A stretch of DNA of 64,000 bases from Planctomycetota bacterium (GCA_014584395.1 JACTMY010000006.1:59800-123799), one strand, 5' to 3'; positions 1,183 to 14,108 are shown, counted from the stretch's first letter. Notes: generated from the letters alone by a model not told the origin. Numbers and translations: made by a program.

Positions 1183-1380
1183 GTTCCTGCTCCCACAACC
1201 GAACCACTGTCTCTGTCACCGCCTTCAGGGCTGCGGTGTTTGGCAACCCGCATAGGCGAAGACTCAACTAATGTGTTTCCCGAAATAAAAGTTGCATTTG
1301 GTAAAAGAGTTTCCGCGCAATCGCACCTCGGTAGCAAGTTTAGCTCACTCTTTGGCCCTCCACAAAAACGCGATAGATGA

Positions 1381-2173
1381 GATGTTGGCACACAATCGCT
1401 GGCAGACTTCACCGGCTACGTCATCGACTACGGCACCTACCCGGACCAGAAGCGGCCGTACTTCACGCTCCGCGACGCCCGGCACACGCTGGCCGTCGCG
1501 ACCAAGGCCAGCGGCCTGGGGGGGGGCGATCTACGCCGGCTTGGAGACGCTGACCCAGGACTACCTCGGCCGCGAGTGGCGGCGGGACGACGGGGCGATG
1601 CTGCGGATCGAGCGCTGCCTCATCGACGCCAACTGGGGCTCCTCGACCGACATCGTTTACCAGTTCTGCCGGCAGTCGGCGTTCGCCGGGATCGTCCTGC
1701 CGAGCCACGGGCGCTTCGTCGGCGCCTCAAGCCAGCCGTTCTCCGAGTACAGGCGGAAACCCGGCGACCGCGTGGGGCACAACTGGCGAATGCCCAACGT
1801 GCAAGGCAAGCGGGCCGTGCGCCATGTGCTGTACGACACGAACTACTGGAAGTCGTTTATCCACGCGCGGCTGGCGGTGCCGATGGGCGAGCGGGGCTGC
1901 CTGTCGCTCTTCGGCGACAAGCCCGAGCAGCATCGCTTGTTCGCCGACCATCTCACCGCCGAGTACCGCGTGAAGACCGAGGGGCGCGGCCGCACGGTCG
2001 ATGAATGGAAGCTGCGGCCGGAGCGTGCCGACAACCACTGGCTTGACTGCCTCGTGGTCTGCGCCGTGGCGGCGTCGATTCAAGGGGCCGTGCTCTTCGG
2101 CACGGACGGCCAGGCGCCAGCGAAGCGCGAGCGCGTCAGCTTAGCCGAACTCCAGCGGAGGAGGCGGCGATGA
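1381..2173 (+). pseudogene. Phage terminase large subunit (lambda GpA family), C-terminal half only, frameshifted
   Basis: The translation IDANWGSSTDIVYQFCRQS...HNWRMPNVQGKRAVRHVLYDTNYWKSF...WKLRPERADNHWLDCLVVCAVAA is typical of the GpA C-terminal (nuclease) half. The upstream homologous part (ADFTGYVIDYGTYPDQKRPYFTL) is in another frame, and the frame change coincides with a run of 9 G at 1518-1526. The ATPase half is absent. Confidence 0.8.
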
Positions 2174-5265: not shown

Positions 5266-6585
5266 TTACTTCAGCTTGAGCGTGTACTTGTAACAATCGG
5301 CGGCCGTCCACTTGGCTGGGTCGGGGTCTTCGCCGTAGGTGGTGAGATACAACTCCAGATGATGCGTTTTGCGGTCTTCGAGCAGCGAAAAATTCGAGAA
5401 CTGAATGTCGCCCTGCCCCTCACGTCGATCATCAATTAATGTCACGGTCGCTTTCATCAACAGCCCGGTTTTGTCGTCGACTTCCGCGATCACCAGCGGG
5501 TACCGAGGCGAATTGCCGCTCGGTGGTTGATTGGTGATGTTACCGAGCCAGTACAGCTTCCCGGTGATGCTGTGGCGAATCATCCGGTGGTACGACGAAG
5601 GAGAATAGAATGCCGTGCCGTCGTCATACGTCCAGATCGCCGGGGCCGAAAGCGTTTGGCCGTTGTCGTTCGAGATGCTGAAAAACTTGTGGCCAGGTAG
5701 CTTGGAGTTGGAACCACGCCAGACGACTAAGAGCCGGCCATCGGTCAGCTCGGCGACTTCGGGTTCCATCAAACCCCGGGATGATTCGTCGGGGGTAATC
5801 TCCACTCGTGCTCCCGCTCGCCAGTCGTAGTCCTTGCGGTCAGCGTTCCATTTCCCGACAAAAAGCACGGAACCCATTCGCCAAGCCCGCTGATGATTCA
5901 GTTTGTCGTGGGGAGCATTGGCGTGGGCCAAGACGGTCACGAGCGTACCGTCTTTACGGCGGAGGATGTTGTTGCCGAAGTAGCCTTCGTTGTGGTTGAG
6001 GAACGTCGCTTGGAGCGGATTCTCGCGATCAAAATCCGTGCCGTTGTTCTCGTAGCGAAGCAGTTGAGGAGCCGTCCACGTCTGTCCCAAATCTTTGGAA
6101 TAGCGGACATATGTGTGGTTGTGCCAGAGGTTCCCCTCTTGCACTTGGCGAAGCCAGAGTTGCACGAGCCAGCCGGAAGCTGGGTCATACTCACACGCGC
6201 CCTCAGTTTCATGGACAGGAATTCCTTTGATGAGTTTCTTGGAGGAGGGCACAATCTTTTTCAACTCGCTCCAGGTTTGGCCATTGTCGGAAGACCAGCG
6301 AGCCAGCACGTTGTCCGCCACGTCGCTTTCGGTTTCCTCCGCGAAGATTTCCCGCTTTTCCAGCTTAGGCCCCACGTAGGTAACGGAAACCAGCGGTGCT
6401 TGATTCGGGTTGCTTCGTTTGCGATACAGTTCTTTGTGAACCGTGACGATCGGCGTGTTCGTTTTCCAAGGTGTCTCGGTCGAGGGGCGGGGTGGTTCGG
6501 CTGCTTGCACAAGAACCGAGAACAGCAGGAGCAACGCGATGGCTCGGCGAAACAAACAGGTCAACATCGGATTCTCCAAAGCCAT
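5266..6585 (-). CDS. Secreted BNR-repeat sialidase / exo-alpha-sialidase-like glycosidase
   Basis: It has a signal peptide (AIALLLLFSVLVQA) and three Asp-box/BNR motifs (SSDNGQTWS, SKDLGQTWT, SNDNGQTLS). Confidence 0.75.
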   Translation of the reverse strand: MALENPMLTCLFRRAIALLLLFSVLVQAAEPPRPSTETPWKTNTPIVTVHKELYRKRSNPNQAPLVSVTYVGPKLEKREIFAEETESDVADNVLARWSSDNGQTWSELKKIVPSSKKLIKGIPVHETEGACEYDPASGWLVQLWLRQVQEGNLWHNHTYVRYSKDLGQTWTAPQLLRYENNGTDFDRENPLQATFLNHNEGYFGNNILRRKDGTLVTVLAHANAPHDKLNHQRAWRMGSVLFVGKWNADRKDYDWRAGARVEITPDESSRGLMEPEVAELTDGRLLVVWRGSNSKLPGHKFFSISNDNGQTLSAPAIWTYDDGTAFYSPSSYHRMIRHSITGKLYWLGNITNQPPSGNSPRYPLVIAEVDDKTGLLMKATVTLIDDRREGQGDIQFSNFSLLEDRKTHHLELYLTTYGEDPDPAKWTAADCYKYTLKLK

Positions 6586-6639
6586 GCAGTGACTACTTGT
6601 GTTGCGATTCCACTGAGTATCGGCATGCTGCGGTGATCA

Positions 6640-7281
6640 TACCCGCGGTGTTTTATTGATCTGATCTGTTAGTAGTAGTCCAAGGTCGCTGTGGCATGAC
6701 GGGCCTGCTTCGGCAACTCTGACGAACGAGTGCCCCATGCCGAAAGAGGGCGACCAAGCACATGGGCTTCGGCGTGAACCAGCCCGGCAACCGGGAGGAC
6801 GGCACCGTCGCCGAGCGGGAGAACGGCCACGGCCAACTGCGGATGGTCCTGAGCGTCTCGTCCGGCGATTCCGGCGGCGGCATCTTCCAGGCCGATACGA
6901 ACTGGTGTCGGTGGTCTGCTGCACTAGCGGCATGTCCTGCAAGGTGTCGATGTGGGGCTGCTCGGCCGAGGTCGCACGACGCACCTGCCCCAAGCCGGCC
7001 GAAGCCGACGAGGCCTGGGTACCGGTCCCCATTCCCATCTGCAAGGACGGCAAACGCACGGACACCGGCGGCGAATGGAGGCCGCACCCGATCTCGATCC
7101 GCACCGTGAGTTCAGCCACGAAGTGAGGGCCAGCGATGCACAGCTTTCAGGACAACGCCGTGCGGACCTGGACGGTGGCCATCAACGTGGCGCTGGTCAA
7201 GCGCGTCCGGGGATTGCTCGACCTAAACTCTTCAAGCTCCTGGACGACGGGGCCAAGCCGCTAGGCGAGGCGAGCTTCTAG
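6640..7281. pseudogene. Degraded GC-rich phage-derived segment (mutually overlapping broken frames; includes a MHSFQDNAVRTWTVAINVALVKRVR fragment at 7135-7281)
   Basis: There is a sharp GC rise after the sialidase gene. No single clean frame is present: the minus-strand reading MAELTVRIEIG... changes frame mid-way. The plus-strand fragment at 7135 loses its frame after about 30 codons. Phage origin is inferred from composition and context. Confidence 0.3.
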
Positions 7282-7598
7282 CCGACCCGGACAAAGCCGA
7301 CGTGTCTTCCACTCGGCCACATCCCGACCCCTCCGAGAAATCCGCCGACCGATGCGTCATCCGGCGCGCGAACTGGAAAGCTCTTCAGTAGAGGGACACA
7401 CGCCAAGACAGCAGAGATCGCGAATTCCACCACCGACGTTCGCGCGGTTCCGGTAGCTGAACAAGGGAGGGGCCGCATCGCCGTTTGAGATCTTCCAGCG
7501 ACGCGGACAACCTGTTCGCGGACGGCATAGGTAACGGTCGGGCACTGCGCATGAGGGACATCATGAACGAACCAACTCCAGACCGGGCCGGCGCGGCG

Positions 7599-10291: not shown

Positions 10292-10313
10292 ACATACCAA
10301 CTGGTTGGTATGT
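10292..10313. promoter_or_regulatory. Candidate TetR operator: perfect 10-bp inverted repeat ACATACCAAC-tg-GTTGGTATGT
   Basis: The palindrome lies 8 nt upstream of the tetR start codon (10284, minus strand), at the head of the tetR-VOC-fusion-dinB operon. Confidence 0.6.
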
Positions 10314-10354
10314 GTTCAAGGCCATTTTGGGGATTTTTTGCGTCCCCTGAGTCG

Positions 10355-11040
10355 AGGAGCAGTGGATCGACTTCAAGAACTTCTTCATCGACACCTTCTA
10401 CCTACCGGGTGGTCTGCGGCCTGGCCCGCTTCCTCAACGACGCCTGGGCCGGCATCCCGGTCGCCTGGGTCGAGACGGTCAGCTTCCTCGGCACCGCCTG
10501 GACGAACTTCATCGGCGTCTTGCAGAAGGCGTGGAACCGCTTCAGCGGCTTCTTCAAGAAGGTGTGGGCGCGGGTCAAGAGCGTGTTCACCGGCAAGGAC
10601 GCCGGCGAGGAGATCGCCCGCATCAACGACGAGATCGCCGCCGAGGACAACGCCATCAACGCTCGCCGGGACGCCGCCGTCAACGAACGGGAGACGGAAC
10701 GTCAACGCCGCCGAGCGGCCATCGAGGGCGAACGCGCCGGGGTCGAGGACGAACTCAACCGCATGCAGCAGGCCGAGCGGGCCGAGCGCGAGAAGCGCAA
10801 GCAGGAGACGCTCGCGGCCGGCGAGGCCGACATCGCCGCCGCCCGCAAGGAGTGGGAGGAAGCCCTGGCCGAGGCCAAGCGGAAGCGCGAGGAGGCCGAC
10901 GCCCGGCTTCCAGGGGGCCGTCGGCGTGGTCTGCCCGGACCTGTGCCGGGGCGAAAGCACGTCAGGCGAGGGGTGCGACTGCCCGTCGGCGGAATCGGTG
11001 CCGGCCGTCGTGCTCTTTGGAGTCATGGACTCACTAGCTC
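10355..11040 (+). pseudogene. Phage tail tape-measure protein fragment
   Basis: This is a GC-rich segment. Its coiled-coil, Ala/Glu/Arg-rich translation (FIGVLQKAWNRFSGFFKKVWARVKSVF...INDEIAAEDNAINARRDAAVNERETERQRRRAAIEGERAG...AAARKEWEEALAEAKRKREEA) is typical of tape-measure internal regions. There is a frame change near 10397, and neither a credible N-terminus nor C-terminus. Confidence 0.5.
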
Positions 11041-11049
11041 GAATAGGGC

Positions 11050-11081
11050 TTGACTCTGTAGTATGGTACAGGGTCGATAAT
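11050..11081 (+). promoter_or_regulatory. MerR-type promoter/operator: TTGACT, a 19-20 bp spacer containing the dyad CTGTAg-tatg-gTACAG, then GATAAT
   Basis: The layout closely mirrors the Tn21/Tn501 mer operator (TTGACTCCGTACATGAGTACGGAAGTAAGGT, quoted from memory). An over-long spacer is the hallmark of MerR-activated promoters. It lies 26 nt upstream of the merR ATG. Confidence 0.6.
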
Positions 11082-11106
11082 GGAGAAAGACGAAGGAAGC
11101 CAGACC

Positions 11107-11535
11107 ATGACCATCAAGCCATTGACCATCGGGCAGGTTGCCCGGCGTTCCGGCGTGGGCATCGAGACGGTGCGGTTCTACGAACGGGAAGGACTGCTTG
11201 CCAAGCCGGAACGCACCGTGTCTGGCTATCGGCAGTTCGATGAGGAAGTCATTGCCCGCTTGCTGTTCATTCAGCGTGCGAAGGAACTCGGTTTCACGCT
11301 TAACGAAATCAAGGAACTTCTTTCCTTGCGGATTGATCCCGACACGTCTTGCGACGATGTGAAGGCCAGAGCAGAAATCAAGATTGCCGACATTGAGGAC
11401 AAAATCAGGACATTGCAGCGGATGAAGAAAGCACTGGTACGGCTGACCCAAGAGTGTTGCGAAAAAGGCGGCGGTTCGGAGTGTCCCATCCTTGACGCAC
11501 TGGATGGACACCCCCGCAGTTCAAGAAAGGAATAA
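11107..11535 (+). CDS. merR: MerR family heavy-metal-responsive transcriptional regulator (Hg-type Cys triad)
   Basis: ATG at 11107 with GAAGGAAG upstream. It has an N-terminal MerR HTH (LTIGQVARRSGVGIETVRFYEREGLL). Cysteines lie at the MerR-like positions (..DTSCDD.., ..QECCEKGGGSECP..). The stop overlaps the next ATG (TAATG). Confidence 0.8.
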   Translation: MTIKPLTIGQVARRSGVGIETVRFYEREGLLAKPERTVSGYRQFDEEVIARLLFIQRAKELGFTLNEIKELLSLRIDPDTSCDDVKARAEIKIADIEDKIRTLQRMKKALVRLTQECCEKGGGSECPILDALDGHPRSSRKE

Positions 11536-12710
11536 TGAGCATGACAACTACCACAGCGACGGCTACGGATTGCCCGAAGTGCGGCAAGAAGGGAAAGACC
11601 GTCAAGCCTGTGACCCTTCGGGCGTTGCTCAAGGATGAGTACGCTGCGGCGGTTGCCGTTGCAGACGAGTCGAATTGCGAATCCGGTTGTACCCCTTCCA
11701 AAGGAAATACCGGCTGGCGGTTTTGTGACTCGCCCGAATGCGACGTGGTGTACTTCGGGGAGCAGAACGGTATCACGTTCACCAAAGATCAACTCAAGGT
11801 TGCAGTCGGTGTGAAGGAAACAACGGGGGAACGCCCCCTTTGCTATTGCTTCGGTCACTCCGTCGCCACGATCACCAGCGAACTTCGACTGAAAGGCCAG
11901 TCGGACGCCTTGGCGGACATTCGCACAAAGATGAAAGACCCCGGCTGTTCGTGCGAGGTCACGAATCCGTCCGGGTCATGCTGTCTTGGCACTGTCGCCA
12001 AAGGCATCGAAACTGCAAAGGCTGAACTCACCCCGATAGCCCCCGTCATTTCATCAGGAAACAAGGCCGAGACGATTACAAAAATTGGAACGGTCCTGTC
12101 GGCAATCATCGCCTCAAGCTGCTGCTGGTTGCCGTTGCTGCTGTTGGCCTTCGGCGTCTCAGGAGCGGGAATCGCCGGGGCGTTGGAAGCGTATAGACCG
12201 CTCTTCATCGTGCTGACCTTCGGCTTCTTGGCGGCGGCGTTCTACTTTACCTACCGCCCCCGAAAGTCACCCACCACGGAAAGCAACTGCTGTTCCACCG
12301 CCCATGACTGCTGTGCCGTTCCGCAAAAGGAAACTAAGCAGCGGTTCTCCATGATAACCATGAACAAGATCATGCTATGGGGCGTGACGCTGCTGGCGGC
12401 GCTGTTTCTATTTTTCCCGAAGTACGTCAGCTTCTTCATGGCGAGCCAAGAGGCTGAAAGCGAAACCACGGCCACAAGCCCGCTTGTCACAAAGACGACC
12501 ATCGCCATCGAAGGGATGACCTGCGAAGGTTGCTCCGTCGCTCTGGAAAAATCAATCAGAGGCGTGCCGGGAGTGTTGAGTGCCAAAGTGGATTTCAAGA
12601 ACAAGCAAGCCGTGGTGTCCACCGAAGCCTGTTGTCCATTCCCTCAAGATCAAATCCTCAAAGCTATCGAAGATGCCGGGTTCGCAGGATCGTTGGTAAC
12701 GCCTCAGTGA
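11535..12710 (+). CDS. Three-domain fusion: N-terminal Cys-rich metallochaperone-like domain (CopZ-N-terminal/2Fe-2S-like), MerT-like transporter and C-terminal HMA (MerP-like) domain
   Basis: aa 12-152 carry CPKCG, CESGC, CDSPEC, CYC, CSC and SCC clusters. aa about 185-300 align with MerT: the TM1 vicinal pair SSCCWLPLLLLAFGVSGAG, then EAYRPLF, a loop with NCCSTAHDCC, and a third TM ending FFPKYVSFF. aa 320-391 carry the HMA motif GMTCEGC. Confidence 0.75.
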   Translation: MSMTTTTATATDCPKCGKKGKTVKPVTLRALLKDEYAAAVAVADESNCESGCTPSKGNTGWRFCDSPECDVVYFGEQNGITFTKDQLKVAVGVKETTGERPLCYCFGHSVATITSELRLKGQSDALADIRTKMKDPGCSCEVTNPSGSCCLGTVAKGIETAKAELTPIAPVISSGNKAETITKIGTVLSAIIASSCCWLPLLLLAFGVSGAGIAGALEAYRPLFIVLTFGFLAAAFYFTYRPRKSPTTESNCCSTAHDCCAVPQKETKQRFSMITMNKIMLWGVTLLAALFLFFPKYVSFFMASQEAESETTATSPLVTKTTIAIEGMTCEGCSVALEKSIRGVPGVLSAKVDFKNKQAVVSTEACCPFPQDQILKAIEDAGFAGSLVTPQ

Positions 12711-12850
12711 ACCGCGTGATTTCTCAAATCGTCGATCCTGTCGTCCAGTACCGCACCCAGAACATCGGCGACGACATCTAGTCGCTGGCTTTTGAATATT
12801 TCCTGCCCCGTGTTGATTTGCGGATGAGTAACCTATCGACTCTCCGCTGT

Positions 12851-13156
12851 TCACGGGTTGTCATGCGGCGGCACAAGCGCCACTTTCTGCCATTGCTGAT
12901 TTTCCGTCTCCGGTCCACGAACATTGACACTGTCAATTCGCCGCACGGCCACGATCCCGGGTATACGGTGCAGTGTCCGCCCGATGACCGCGTGGGTCGT
13001 CCGGATCGGATCGACTGCGGTGACGTTCTCGTACAGATCGCGTACATACTCCTGGGGATACGCGGTCATGATGGCTTGAATGACATTATGGGAATCGAAC
13101 GAGTCGGGCATCCGACTGACGACGATCGCAAGAATCGAATCAGTCAGGTGTGTCAT
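12851..13156 (-). CDS. Hypothetical protein (101 aa)
   Basis: ATG at 13156 is preceded by GAGGAG at good spacing. The amino-acid composition looks natural, while the 143-aa ORF on the opposite strand looks like a shadow. I recognised no family. Confidence 0.5.
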   Translation of the reverse strand: MTHLTDSILAIVVSRMPDSFDSHNVIQAIMTAYPQEYVRDLYENVTAVDPIRTTHAVIGRTLHRIPGIVAVRRIDSVNVRGPETENQQWQKVALVPPHDNP

Positions 13157-13351
13157 TGTCGGCTCCTCAACATGGGTTTCACCGGTGAACTGACAACCTC
13201 ACGGCTGGACTCCAGAACGACCGGCACACTCTCTACCCGCGAGAACTGAGAAATCGCTGCGAGCAAAGCACTATTTTGAAGAAGATATGAAGATTTTCAA
13301 GGCGGCTGCTTCCGCCCCGCTCCGCGACGCCGTTCGGAGGTTCGTGGACTC

Positions 13352-14010: not shown

Positions 14011-14035
14011 GAAGTTGCTTGGAGCGTTGGGTCAG

Positions 14036-14108
14036 TACCCCCGGCAGGATTCGAACCTGCGACCCTCGGTTTAGGAAACCGATGCTCTATCCCCTGAGCT
14101 ACGGGGGC
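14036..14108 (-). tRNA. tRNA-Arg (anticodon CCT)
   Basis: The reverse complement folds as a cloverleaf: GCCCCCG TA GCTC AGGGGATA GAGC A TCGGT TTCCTAA ACCGA GGGTC GCAGG TTCGAAT CCTGC CGGGGGT A. That is 73 nt with a GTTCGAATC T-loop, anticodon CCT and a G1-U72 wobble. CCA is not encoded. Confidence 0.9.

Follow-up and report, generated by a model that had tools for sequence, protein, structure and literature searches.

A MerR-controlled cassette encoding a CopZ-N, MerT and HMA fusion in a planctomycete: a candidate mercury-responsive thiol relay in a family with few linked mercuric reductases

Mercury resistance is commonly taught as the combination of transport with reduction by the mercuric reductase MerA, and import alone is expected to be harmful. 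Here we analyze a locus in a stretch of 64,000 nucleotides from a Planctomycetota bacterium (GCA_014584395.1 JACTMY010000006.1:59800-123799; the whole stretch is henceforth the window, and positions are counted from its first letter), in which a merR-family gene is followed by a gene for a fusion of a CopZ-type N-terminal domain, a MerT-like membrane core and a heavy-metal-associated (HMA) domain. We propose, at a probability of roughly 55%, that the two genes make up a Hg(II)-induced, self-regulated cassette, whose fusion product is a single-polypeptide thiol relay leading from the periplasm to the cytosol; which metal it serves, how it lies in the membrane, which way the metal travels and what the N-terminal domain does are inferred here. 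Each of the domains and the logic of MerR regulation are already known, and databases already list hundreds of copies of the three-domain protein, named inconsistently. The fusion is not peculiar to this genome, nor does it represent a new category; it is the family-wide lack of a linked MerA that is the interesting part. In the literature, we found no paper describing or testing the zf_CopZ-MerT-HMA architecture.

The closest described systems and the domains of the fusion

Among the described systems, the merR-merT-merP arrays of Tn21 and Tn501, for which we used a Tn21-like copy (LC621169, locus L097), share the most with the window: a MerR with Cys82, Cys117 and Cys126, a TTGACT box abutted by a dyad within a spacer longer than usual, a MerT core whose first transmembrane segment (TM1) carries a Cys-Cys pair and whose cytoplasmic loop has cysteines, and an HMA domain with a GMTCxxC motif. 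In contrast to these arrays, MerT and MerP are fused in the window, merR comes first and is co-directional, the spacer is 20 rather than 19 bp long, the loop is CC..CC rather than C..C, and a Zn/[2Fe-2S]-type N-terminal domain of 150 residues is added; merA, merC, merD and merE are absent, and the equivalog cutoffs for MerR, MerT and MerP are unreached. The MerTP fusions (NF033556) likewise join a MerT to a C-terminal HMA/MerP domain in a single chain. However, the window protein has the CopZ-N domain and is not a member, as it scores 111 bits over residues 186-383 against a cutoff of 180. The archaeal CopZ of A. fulgidus has a homologous N-terminal domain, with aligned ligand cysteines, and an HMA domain in the same chain. 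It differs in that the window protein has a three-helix MerT core between the two soluble domains, which should consequently face opposite sides of the membrane, and in that the window gene is bacterial, lies on a mobile cassette and is under a MerR-type sensor with Cys82. The N-terminal domain passes the cutoff of the stand-alone CopZ_Nterm_CC family (NF047645), but is fused to MerT-HMA instead. Finally, with the model of a 'MerT/CopZ fusion-like heavy metal transport selenoprotein' (NF045683), the window protein scores only 83 bits against a cutoff of 375, and it has no selenocysteine.

The layout of the locus finds its best parallel in the mer operons of Gram-positive bacteria, in which merR is the first gene. 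These operons are also co-directional; they differ in that they include merA, in their MerR and operator sequences, and in that the host here is a planctomycete, as the named relatives of the fusion and the window's YTV and DUF1573 proteins indicate. The sequence-only reading had contrasted the co-direction of merR and the fusion gene with the divergent layout of classical mer operons. The co-direction stands, but its oddity does not: the same layout occurs in Gram-positive mer, and the fusion family itself has both layouts, with merR pointing the same way as the fusion gene, as it does here, or away from it, as in Gimesia and Rhodopirellula.

Table 1. Features of the cassette and its immediate surroundings
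Feature	Position	Strand	Basis
Shared cassette: promoter, merR and fusion gene	11046-12695	+	blastn to L001, L002, L011 and L007
MerR-type promoter/operator	11050-11081	+	read from sequence; kept in 8 related loci
Shine-Dalgarno-like GAAGGAAG before merR	11093-11100	+	read from sequence; motif kept in relatives
merR-family regulator, 142 aa	11107-11535	+	Pfam MerR_1, MerR and MerR-DNA-bind
Three-domain fusion gene, 391 aa (or 389 aa from ATG 11541)	11535-12710	+	Pfam, NCBIfam
CopZ-N-type domain, predicted cytosolic, aa 7-154	11553-11996	+	Pfam zf_CopZ, NCBIfam, PDB 2HU9
MerT core, aa 179-301	12069-12437	+	Pfam MerT, tblastn, hydropathy
HMA (MerP-like) domain, predicted to face the periplasm, aa 322-383	12498-12683	+	Pfam HMA, MerP tblastn
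Candidate terminator-like hairpin with T-rich tail	12765-12798	+	consensus scan; 55 nt past the stop codon

The fusion protein has 22 cysteines, with residues 13, 16, 48, 52, 64, 69, 103, 105, 138, 140, 149 and 150 in the N-terminal part, and residues 196, 197, 252, 253, 259, 260, 330, 333, 366 and 367 in the remainder. A resemblance of the N-terminal part to the Zn/[2Fe-2S] domain of CopZ had been noticed from the sequence alone, and profile and structure matches now bear this out: it scores 61.8 bits with zf_CopZ (PF18423; cutoff 28.4) and, over residues 7-154, 102.1 bits with CopZ_Nterm_CC (annotated 'putative iron-sulfur cluster-binding metallochaperone'; cutoff 100), while the N-terminal 177 residues match one solved structure, that of the A. 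fulgidus CopZ N-domain (2HU9; E = 1.1e-13). The alignment with this structure covers residues 58-151 and places its Cys38/43 on Cys64/69, and its Cys75/77/109/118-119 on Cys103/105/140/149-150; we take these cysteines of 2HU9 to be its Zn and [2Fe-2S] ligands. The first CxxC (Cys13/16) is outside the aligned stretch and is assigned by the zf_CopZ match and by its invariance. Accordingly, we predict a Zn ribbon formed by Cys13/16/64/69 and a [2Fe-2S]-type site formed by Cys103/105/140/149-150, all of which are invariant in 27 homologues.

The central region was also correctly anticipated as a MerT-like core with the vicinal Cys pair of TM1 and a doubled CC..CC loop. It passes the Pfam MerT model (PF02411) with 55.9 bits against a cutoff of 32.9, covering positions 7-115 of the 116 in the profile, and a Tn21-like MerT finds it in a tblastn search of the window with 36% identity (E = 2e-14). 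With the NCBIfam MerT model (NF010314), it scores 55.1 bits, which is under the cutoff of 150. It displays three hydrophobic segments with peaks at residues 187-205, 222-240 and 276-302; Cys196-Cys197 lies in the first of these, Cys252/253/259/260 lies in loop 2, and the MerT motifs conserved in the fusion are the CC in TM1 and a YRP motif. Likewise, the GMTCEGC motif (residues 327-333) does belong to an HMA domain, as had been claimed: the Pfam HMA model (PF00403) is passed with 50.0 bits against 24.8, and a Tn21-like MerP matches the window with 36% identity (E = 7e-10), whereas the MerP equivalog (TIGR02052) is at 36.8 bits under its cutoff of 92.55. Residues ~157-387 as a whole are collinear with the adjacent merT and merP genes of Tn21-like plasmids. 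As a further feature, the HMA domain has an extra Cys366-Cys367 pair (12630-12635) within a conserved 'CCPFP', which is seen in most but not all members of the family; classical MerP does not have this pair.

The three segments, the usual topology of MerT and the counts of Lys plus Arg (none in loop 1 and six in loop 2) together point to an N-in/C-out placement, in which the N-terminal domain and the CC..CC loop would be cytoplasmic and the HMA domain periplasmic. The AlphaFold2 (AF2) model of the full-length protein, which we used for helix positions only, has helices at residues 177-205, 210-240 and 273-308.

The junction of the two genes is a TAATG, as the sequence-only reading had it: the stop codon of merR (TAA, 11533-11535) overlaps the first ATG of the fusion gene (11535-11537). 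The true start of the fusion may nevertheless be the second ATG at 11541, because the AGGA Shine-Dalgarno core (11528-11531) is 3 nt from the first ATG and 9 nt from the second, and the public gene calls of the identical protein (P0001, P0121) agree on the latter start. With either start, the gap between merR and the fusion gene is at most 5 nt. In one relative with a fusion that is 81% identical (L049, 8401-9988), merR and the fusion gene are separated by an insert of ~1.6 kb, which encodes a protein of ~200 residues that is HMA-like in its N-terminal part and has a PDZ-like stretch; thus, the tight coupling between the two genes can be broken.

The regulator, its operator and the mobile cassette

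The regulator is a clear member of the MerR family, with scores above the Pfam cutoffs for MerR_1 (71.3 bits), MerR-DNA-bind (73.3 bits) and MerR (56.1 bits). Its start is most likely the ATG at 11107, which, together with its ribosome-binding site, is kept in relatives (the alignment retains a GGAGGAA/GAAGGAA motif ahead of merR), whereas the in-frame ATG at 11080 is inside the -10 hexamer. In an alignment with the Tn21-like MerR, Cys82, Cys117, Cys126 and the CPIL motif occupy identical positions with identical spacing, and the spacing of the three cysteines and a CP(I/L)(L/I) motif is that of the Tn21 and Tn501 proteins. The three cysteines are also kept in the co-directional regulators that flank the fusion; Cys118 is not. 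In the MerR of Tn501, Cys82', Cys117 and Cys126 are the ligands that hold Hg(II) in a trigonal geometry (PMC5027573). The best-supported candidate inducer of the window regulator is Hg(II).

Upstream of merR, the sequence-only reading had recognized a MerR-type promoter with TTGACT, a CTGTA..TACAG dyad and GATAAT, and all of these are present. The -35 box TTGACT is at 11050-11055 and the -10 box GATAAT at 11076-11081; the spacer between them, CTGTAGTATGGTACAGGGTC, had been put at 19-20 bp, and while it is indeed over-long, its exact length is 20 bp. A spacer of this length has been reported for Gram-positive mer promoters (PMC5027573). The dyad within it consists of CTGTA (11056-11060) and TACAG (11067-11071) separated by 6 nt. 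A generic sigma-70 scan that admits only spacers of 16-18 nt does not call this promoter, as is expected of the over-long spacer of the MerR type. The block CTTGACTCTGTAGTATGGTACAGGGTCGATAAT is kept in 8 related loci, the rest of whose upstream DNA is unalignable. The operator of the window (TTGACT-CTGTA-GTATGG-TACAG-GGTC-GATAAT) can be set beside that of the relative L007 (TTGACT-CCGTA-GTATGG-TACGG-GGTT-TATAAT), from which the dyad differs by a C-to-T/G-to-A change that is symmetric on both arms, and beside the merO of the Tn21-like copy (TTGACT-CCGTA-CATAAC-TACGG-AAG-TAAGCT, with a 19-bp spacer). As the three sequences agree in this, the half-sites, their separation by 6 nt and their abutment on the -35 box are the same as in the classical merO.

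The extent of homology defines this element as a unit. The blastn matches to four relatives, which are 89-90% (L001, L002 and L011) or 79% (L007) identical in nucleotide sequence, start at 11042-11049, at the -35 box, and end at 12691-12695, just before the stop codon of the fusion, with unrelated flanks. These limits imply that the shared unit is a cassette of 1.65 kb, comprising the promoter and the two genes, and it is horizontally spread between genomes. A homologue is also found on the mobilizable plasmid pK2D_1 of the cultured Planctomycetes bacterium K2D, where it adjoins czcCBA; this makes the system experimentally tractable. In the species of the window, the cassette is at one and the same chromosomal position, flanked by a TetR/glyoxalase cluster and lipopolysaccharide-core genes, in at least 23 contigs with ~99% identity. 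We saw no second copy of the 3' end of the tRNA-Arg gene in the window, and no convincing direct or inverted repeats flanking the cassette.

Both genes are under purifying selection. When measured by the Nei-Gojobori method against four relatives without a linked MerA, the ratio of nonsynonymous to synonymous substitution rates (dN/dS) is 0.12-0.17 for merR and 0.18-0.25 for the whole fusion; across the three domains it ranges over 0.10-0.31 in these merA-less loci, with the CopZ-N domain showing the lowest values (0.10-0.15).

A proposed relay, its relatives and the alternatives

A search with the full-length protein recovered 769 hits, and at least 118 of the best 120 clusters, which were those listed, combine zf_CopZ, MerT and HMA; a further 345 metagenome stretches encode relatives. 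The extra Cys-rich N-terminal domain had struck the sequence-only reading as unusual, and this does not hold; the allied question of whether this domain is a common part of annotated MerTP proteins finds a partial yes, in that the architecture is widespread and the proteins are already named. The named sources of the best clusters are Gemmataceae, Planctomycetes, Gimesia, Bdellovibrionales and metagenome-assembled genomes (MAGs) of Actinomycetota, with Planctomycetota in the majority, and the genome scan adds Rhodopirellula and a 'Nitrosomonas' MAG. That scan of genome contigs with the single protein gave 6 loci; the survey proper was an alignment-based scan of metagenomes, and 80 metagenome loci were fetched in addition to genome and contig loci. 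The cysteines of the proposed relay are invariant or at least 90% conserved in the 27 homologues, which are 55-87% identical. The only near-universal neighbor is a MerR-family gene, present in 56 of the 58 full-length loci. Occasional neighbors include resolvases, czc/RND pumps, P-type ATPases, ArsC-like phosphatases and small HMA proteins.

A linked MerA, which we defined by a long match to a MerA query together with a C-terminal CC pair, occurs in the flanks of 3 of the 25 non-redundant loci that extend for 5 kb or more to each side; among those with 3 kb or more downstream, the count is 3 of 37. The two that were examined (L009 and L029) score 500 and 489 bits against the TIGR02053 cutoff of 454 and have the C-terminal CC; both are 475 residues long and core-only, that is, without NmerA. 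These loci place the fusion family in bona fide mer operons. In the window itself, tblastn searches with MerA (Gimesia and Tn21-like), MerC and MerE queries gave no match at E <= 1 in the 64 kb apart from the HMA domain of the fusion, in agreement with the claim of an absent merA, and Pfam scans of the 48 other open reading frames (ORFs) found no mer-related or metal-reductase gene, no query aimed at merB having been used. The same claim had, however, treated this absence as peculiar to the locus, whereas it is the norm of the family. A 514-residue flavoprotein encoded upstream in L007 and L008 was considered as a MerA and rejected: it belongs to NF004991 ('FAD-containing oxidoreductase'), has no C-terminal CC and scores 387 against the cutoff of 454.

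We posit the following mechanism. Without metal, the regulator would bind the CTGTA-N6-TACAG dyad and repress the promoter, in line with the MerR paradigm. Upon binding of a thiophilic divalent metal, most probably Hg(II), by Cys82', Cys117 and Cys126, it would realign the -35 and -10 boxes, so that merR and the fusion gene are expressed as one transcript. The fusion protein would then span the membrane with three helices, its N terminus in the cytosol and its C terminus in the periplasm. The periplasmic HMA domain, as the counterpart of MerP, would capture the metal with its GMTCEGC motif and pass it to the Cys196-Cys197 pair in TM1; from there it would move to the cytoplasmic Cys252/253/259/260 loop, as in MerT, and finally to the cytosolic CopZ-N domain with its Zn ribbon and [2Fe-2S]-type site. 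This last domain would thereby take the place of the NmerA of classical systems, a proposal that fits the core-only nature of the linked MerA in L009 and L029. In a minority of relatives, a core-only MerA encoded by the next gene would reduce the delivered metal. Where no MerA is nearby, as in the window and most relatives, disposal might fall to an unlinked reductase, to a thiol buffer or to the Fe-S domain itself.

Several observations weigh against this proposal. The best NCBIfam match of the regulator is MerR (TIGR02051), yet its 133.3 bits are below the cutoff of 150.85; the ZntR model gives a nearly equal 132.9 bits (cutoff 143), and the CueR model 125.1 bits (cutoff 147.4). As no equivalog cutoff is passed, the metal specificity is not settled by sequence. 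The AF2 model, made with 27 sequences, has a mean predicted local distance difference test (pLDDT) score of 57.6 and a predicted template modeling (pTM) score of 0.27; only the HMA domain (pLDDT 81-90) and parts of the Zn ribbon are confident, and the model is uninformative on the contacts between the domains. Cells with merT and merP but without merA are hypersensitive to Hg(II), so that import as the only role would seem a disadvantage to the cell, unless a reductase gene lies elsewhere. That import without reduction is puzzling had been pointed out for this locus; the puzzle stands, and it is a general one for the family. MerA is missing from the window as well as from the vicinity of 22 of the 25 well-flanked relatives, and the genes beside some relatives are of the czc/RND or P-type ATPase kind instead of mer genes. 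Finally, in one survey, a single Planctomycetes genome had MerA (PMC8261052).

The alternative that fares best, although we consider it unlikely, is that the metal is not mercury but Cd, Zn, Pb or copper, with the fusion serving as an uptake, chaperone or buffering device in a broader metal-resistance network. The equal scores of the regulator on the ZntR and MerR models, neither of which it passes, would fit this, and its Cys117-Cys118 resembles the Cys114-Cys115 pair of ZntR; yet Cys118 is not conserved among the co-directional regulators, whereas Cys82/117/126 with the spacing of MerR are conserved in the regulators flanking the fusion. Sensors of the CueR type, which respond to Cu(I), Ag and Au, have a Ser at position 82, and Cys82 accordingly speaks against such a sensor. 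The company of czcCBA, RND pumps and P-type ATPases in relatives can be cited for another metal, as can the JGI name 'copper chaperone CopZ' and the fact that the structural prototype of the N-terminal domain is a copper chaperone. Against these stand the operator half-sites, which are those of the Tn21-like merO, the match of MerT and MerP, among the classical mer proteins compared, to the transporter part, and the identity of the only recurrent linked enzyme, which is MerA.

A second alternative, to which we give a somewhat lower chance, sees the cassette as a self-sufficient, MerA-independent detoxifier, in which the [2Fe-2S] domain might act as a built-in electron donor, such that mercury or another soft metal is reduced or neutralized on the transporter itself. 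In detail, a ferredoxin or NAD(P)H might re-reduce the domain, Hg(II) on the neighboring Cys loop might be converted to Hg(0) that diffuses out, and the two genes alone might then confer resistance. Several strands are consistent with this: it is the two-gene unit that is conserved and moves between genomes; it is under purifying selection without a linked MerA, with the Fe-S domain as its most constrained part; the homologous N-domain of A. fulgidus CopZ mediates the reduction of Cu(II) (PMC7558416); and MerA is seemingly rare in Planctomycetes (PMC8261052). However, a [2Fe-2S] cluster is a one-electron center, while the conversion of Hg(II) to Hg(0) takes two electrons, and the true MerA that follows the fusion in 3 of 25 loci is more simply explained if the fusion is the transporter arm of a MerA system. 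Were the detoxifier nonetheless real, it would explain the spread and persistence of a stand-alone cassette in lineages that largely do not have merA.

Less probable again is a device for sequestration or sensing, which would bind metal stoichiometrically on its 22 cysteines, or signal, with no net transport or reduction. The very high Cys content, with clusters on both sides of the membrane, and the absence of a nearby partner enzyme would suit such a role; but one-to-one binding protects little, eight of the cysteines are predicted structural Zn or Fe-S ligands rather than free thiols, and the MerT motifs (the CC of TM1 and YRP) point to a transport core. Lastly, although merA is absent from the 64-kb window and partial merRT clusters are known in other bacteria, a decaying, functionless mer remnant has next to no probability, as the dN/dS values of 0.1-0.25 exclude it, and the ORFs are intact in 56 non-redundant loci, the promoter is conserved and the cassette has a constant chromosomal location in at least 23 same-species contigs with 99% identity.

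The window has one member of a large, conserved, mobile and Planctomycetota-centered family in which a MerR switch drives only a predicted importer of the MerP-MerT type fused to a Zn/Fe-S domain, in most cases without a neighboring MerA. Should unlinked reductases serve these organisms, the reading of mer gene surveys would change; alternatively, the imported metal could be dealt with in a novel manner by the Fe-S domain. The names under which the family is deposited bear on the same issue. They include 'cation transporter', 'mercuric transporter MerT family protein', 'copper chaperone CopZ' (JGI) and 'Copper-transporting P-type ATPase', and names that are in places wrong ('copper chaperone CopZ', 'mercuric reductase', 'Cu-ATPase') would distort metagenomic estimates of mercury-cycling potential. 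The plasmid-borne homologue of strain K2D (L096, 8965-10200; CP036351) is one such case, being misannotated as 'merA, mercuric reductase'.

Genomic context and variation among relatives

The cassette had been placed inside a prophage-derived island, but the window offers two phage signs only, and the other neighbors are ordinary chromosomal genes. The first sign is an ORF of 293 residues at 1292-2170 (+) that matches only the endonuclease domain of the phage terminase large subunit gpA (Pfam GpA_nuclease, 7e-19; phrog_15, 1.4e-26); it is probably left over from a prophage and lies 9 kb away from the cassette. The second is the ORF at 10310-11053 (+), a Glu/Arg/Ala-rich low-complexity coiled coil with a weak PHROGs tape-measure match (E = 2.4e-5). 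It is part of a GC-rich stretch upstream of the cassette with long ORFs on both strands (10310-11053 on the plus and 10385-11026 on the minus strand); the gene callers chose a 185-residue minus-strand ORF there in the sister contigs, from which the window differs slightly at 10815-10900. Relatives of the fusion are almost absent from viral collections, with 1 relative among 2.9 million viral contigs and 1 partial MerT match among 50,697 phage records. We accordingly rejected a prophage as the main context. The remaining window genes recognized by Pfam are housekeeping and planctomycete-typical ones and include those for topoisomerase I, PurA, PurM, LysS, FeoB, a squalene/phytoene synthase, LpxK, a heptosyltransferase, Kdo kinases, and YTV and DUF1573 proteins; a tRNA-Arg(CCT) gene is at 14035-14108.

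Downstream of the cassette, the window departs from the same-species contigs L092-L095: a stretch of 526 bp (12786-13312) replaces a different one of 669 bp, with ~99% identity on both sides, and the candidate terminator is at the edge of this segment. In L092-L095, an ORF for a pyruvyl-transferase-like protein of 263 residues has a GTG start that overlaps the stop codon of the fusion; its version in the window stops after 24 codons. The replaced segment has an ORF of 101 residues on the minus strand (12851-13156) with no family match.

Some relatives depart from the cassette arrangement. In a Mariprofundus MAG (L006, 9576-11305), the components are split into separate genes, in this order, for a MerR, a MerT-like protein of 133 residues, a two-helix MerF/MerE-like protein of 78 residues with CC and DDCC motifs, and a stand-alone CopZ-N protein of 146 residues, with a low-molecular-weight-phosphatase/ArsC-like gene next on the opposite strand. 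This split operon thus provides an independent link of the Fe-S domain to transporters of the MerT type. The loci L069-L090 encode shorter MerT-HMA relatives that do not have the CopZ-N domain and are 42-53% identical over residues 176-388. The tblastn survey of their flanks found no MerA, and a MerR-like match only in L070, where it is remote, near the other end of the contig; the regulation and the use of these shorter proteins may differ. Gimesia (L009, CP036266) has at 6416-7355 an orphan regulator that is 70% identical to the window MerR and has the same promoter region (blastn match from 11049), followed only by two tiny ORFs. It lies just upstream of an operon with a divergent-type merR, the fusion, a protein with two HMA domains and merA, and looks like the remnant of a second cassette of the window type.

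Two further neighborhoods have other potential metal-binding components. Near the fusion gene of L024 (1073-1588), and likewise in 8 further loci, there is a gene for a small protein that looks secreted and has a repeated CPITGEELxCxxCCPLN motif; it is possibly another thiol-rich metal binder. In L100 (3908-5736), the divergent merR-fusion pair is beside genes for MbnB/TglH-like, HvfC_N, DUF3179 and thioredoxin proteins, a neighborhood typical of metal-binding peptide systems.

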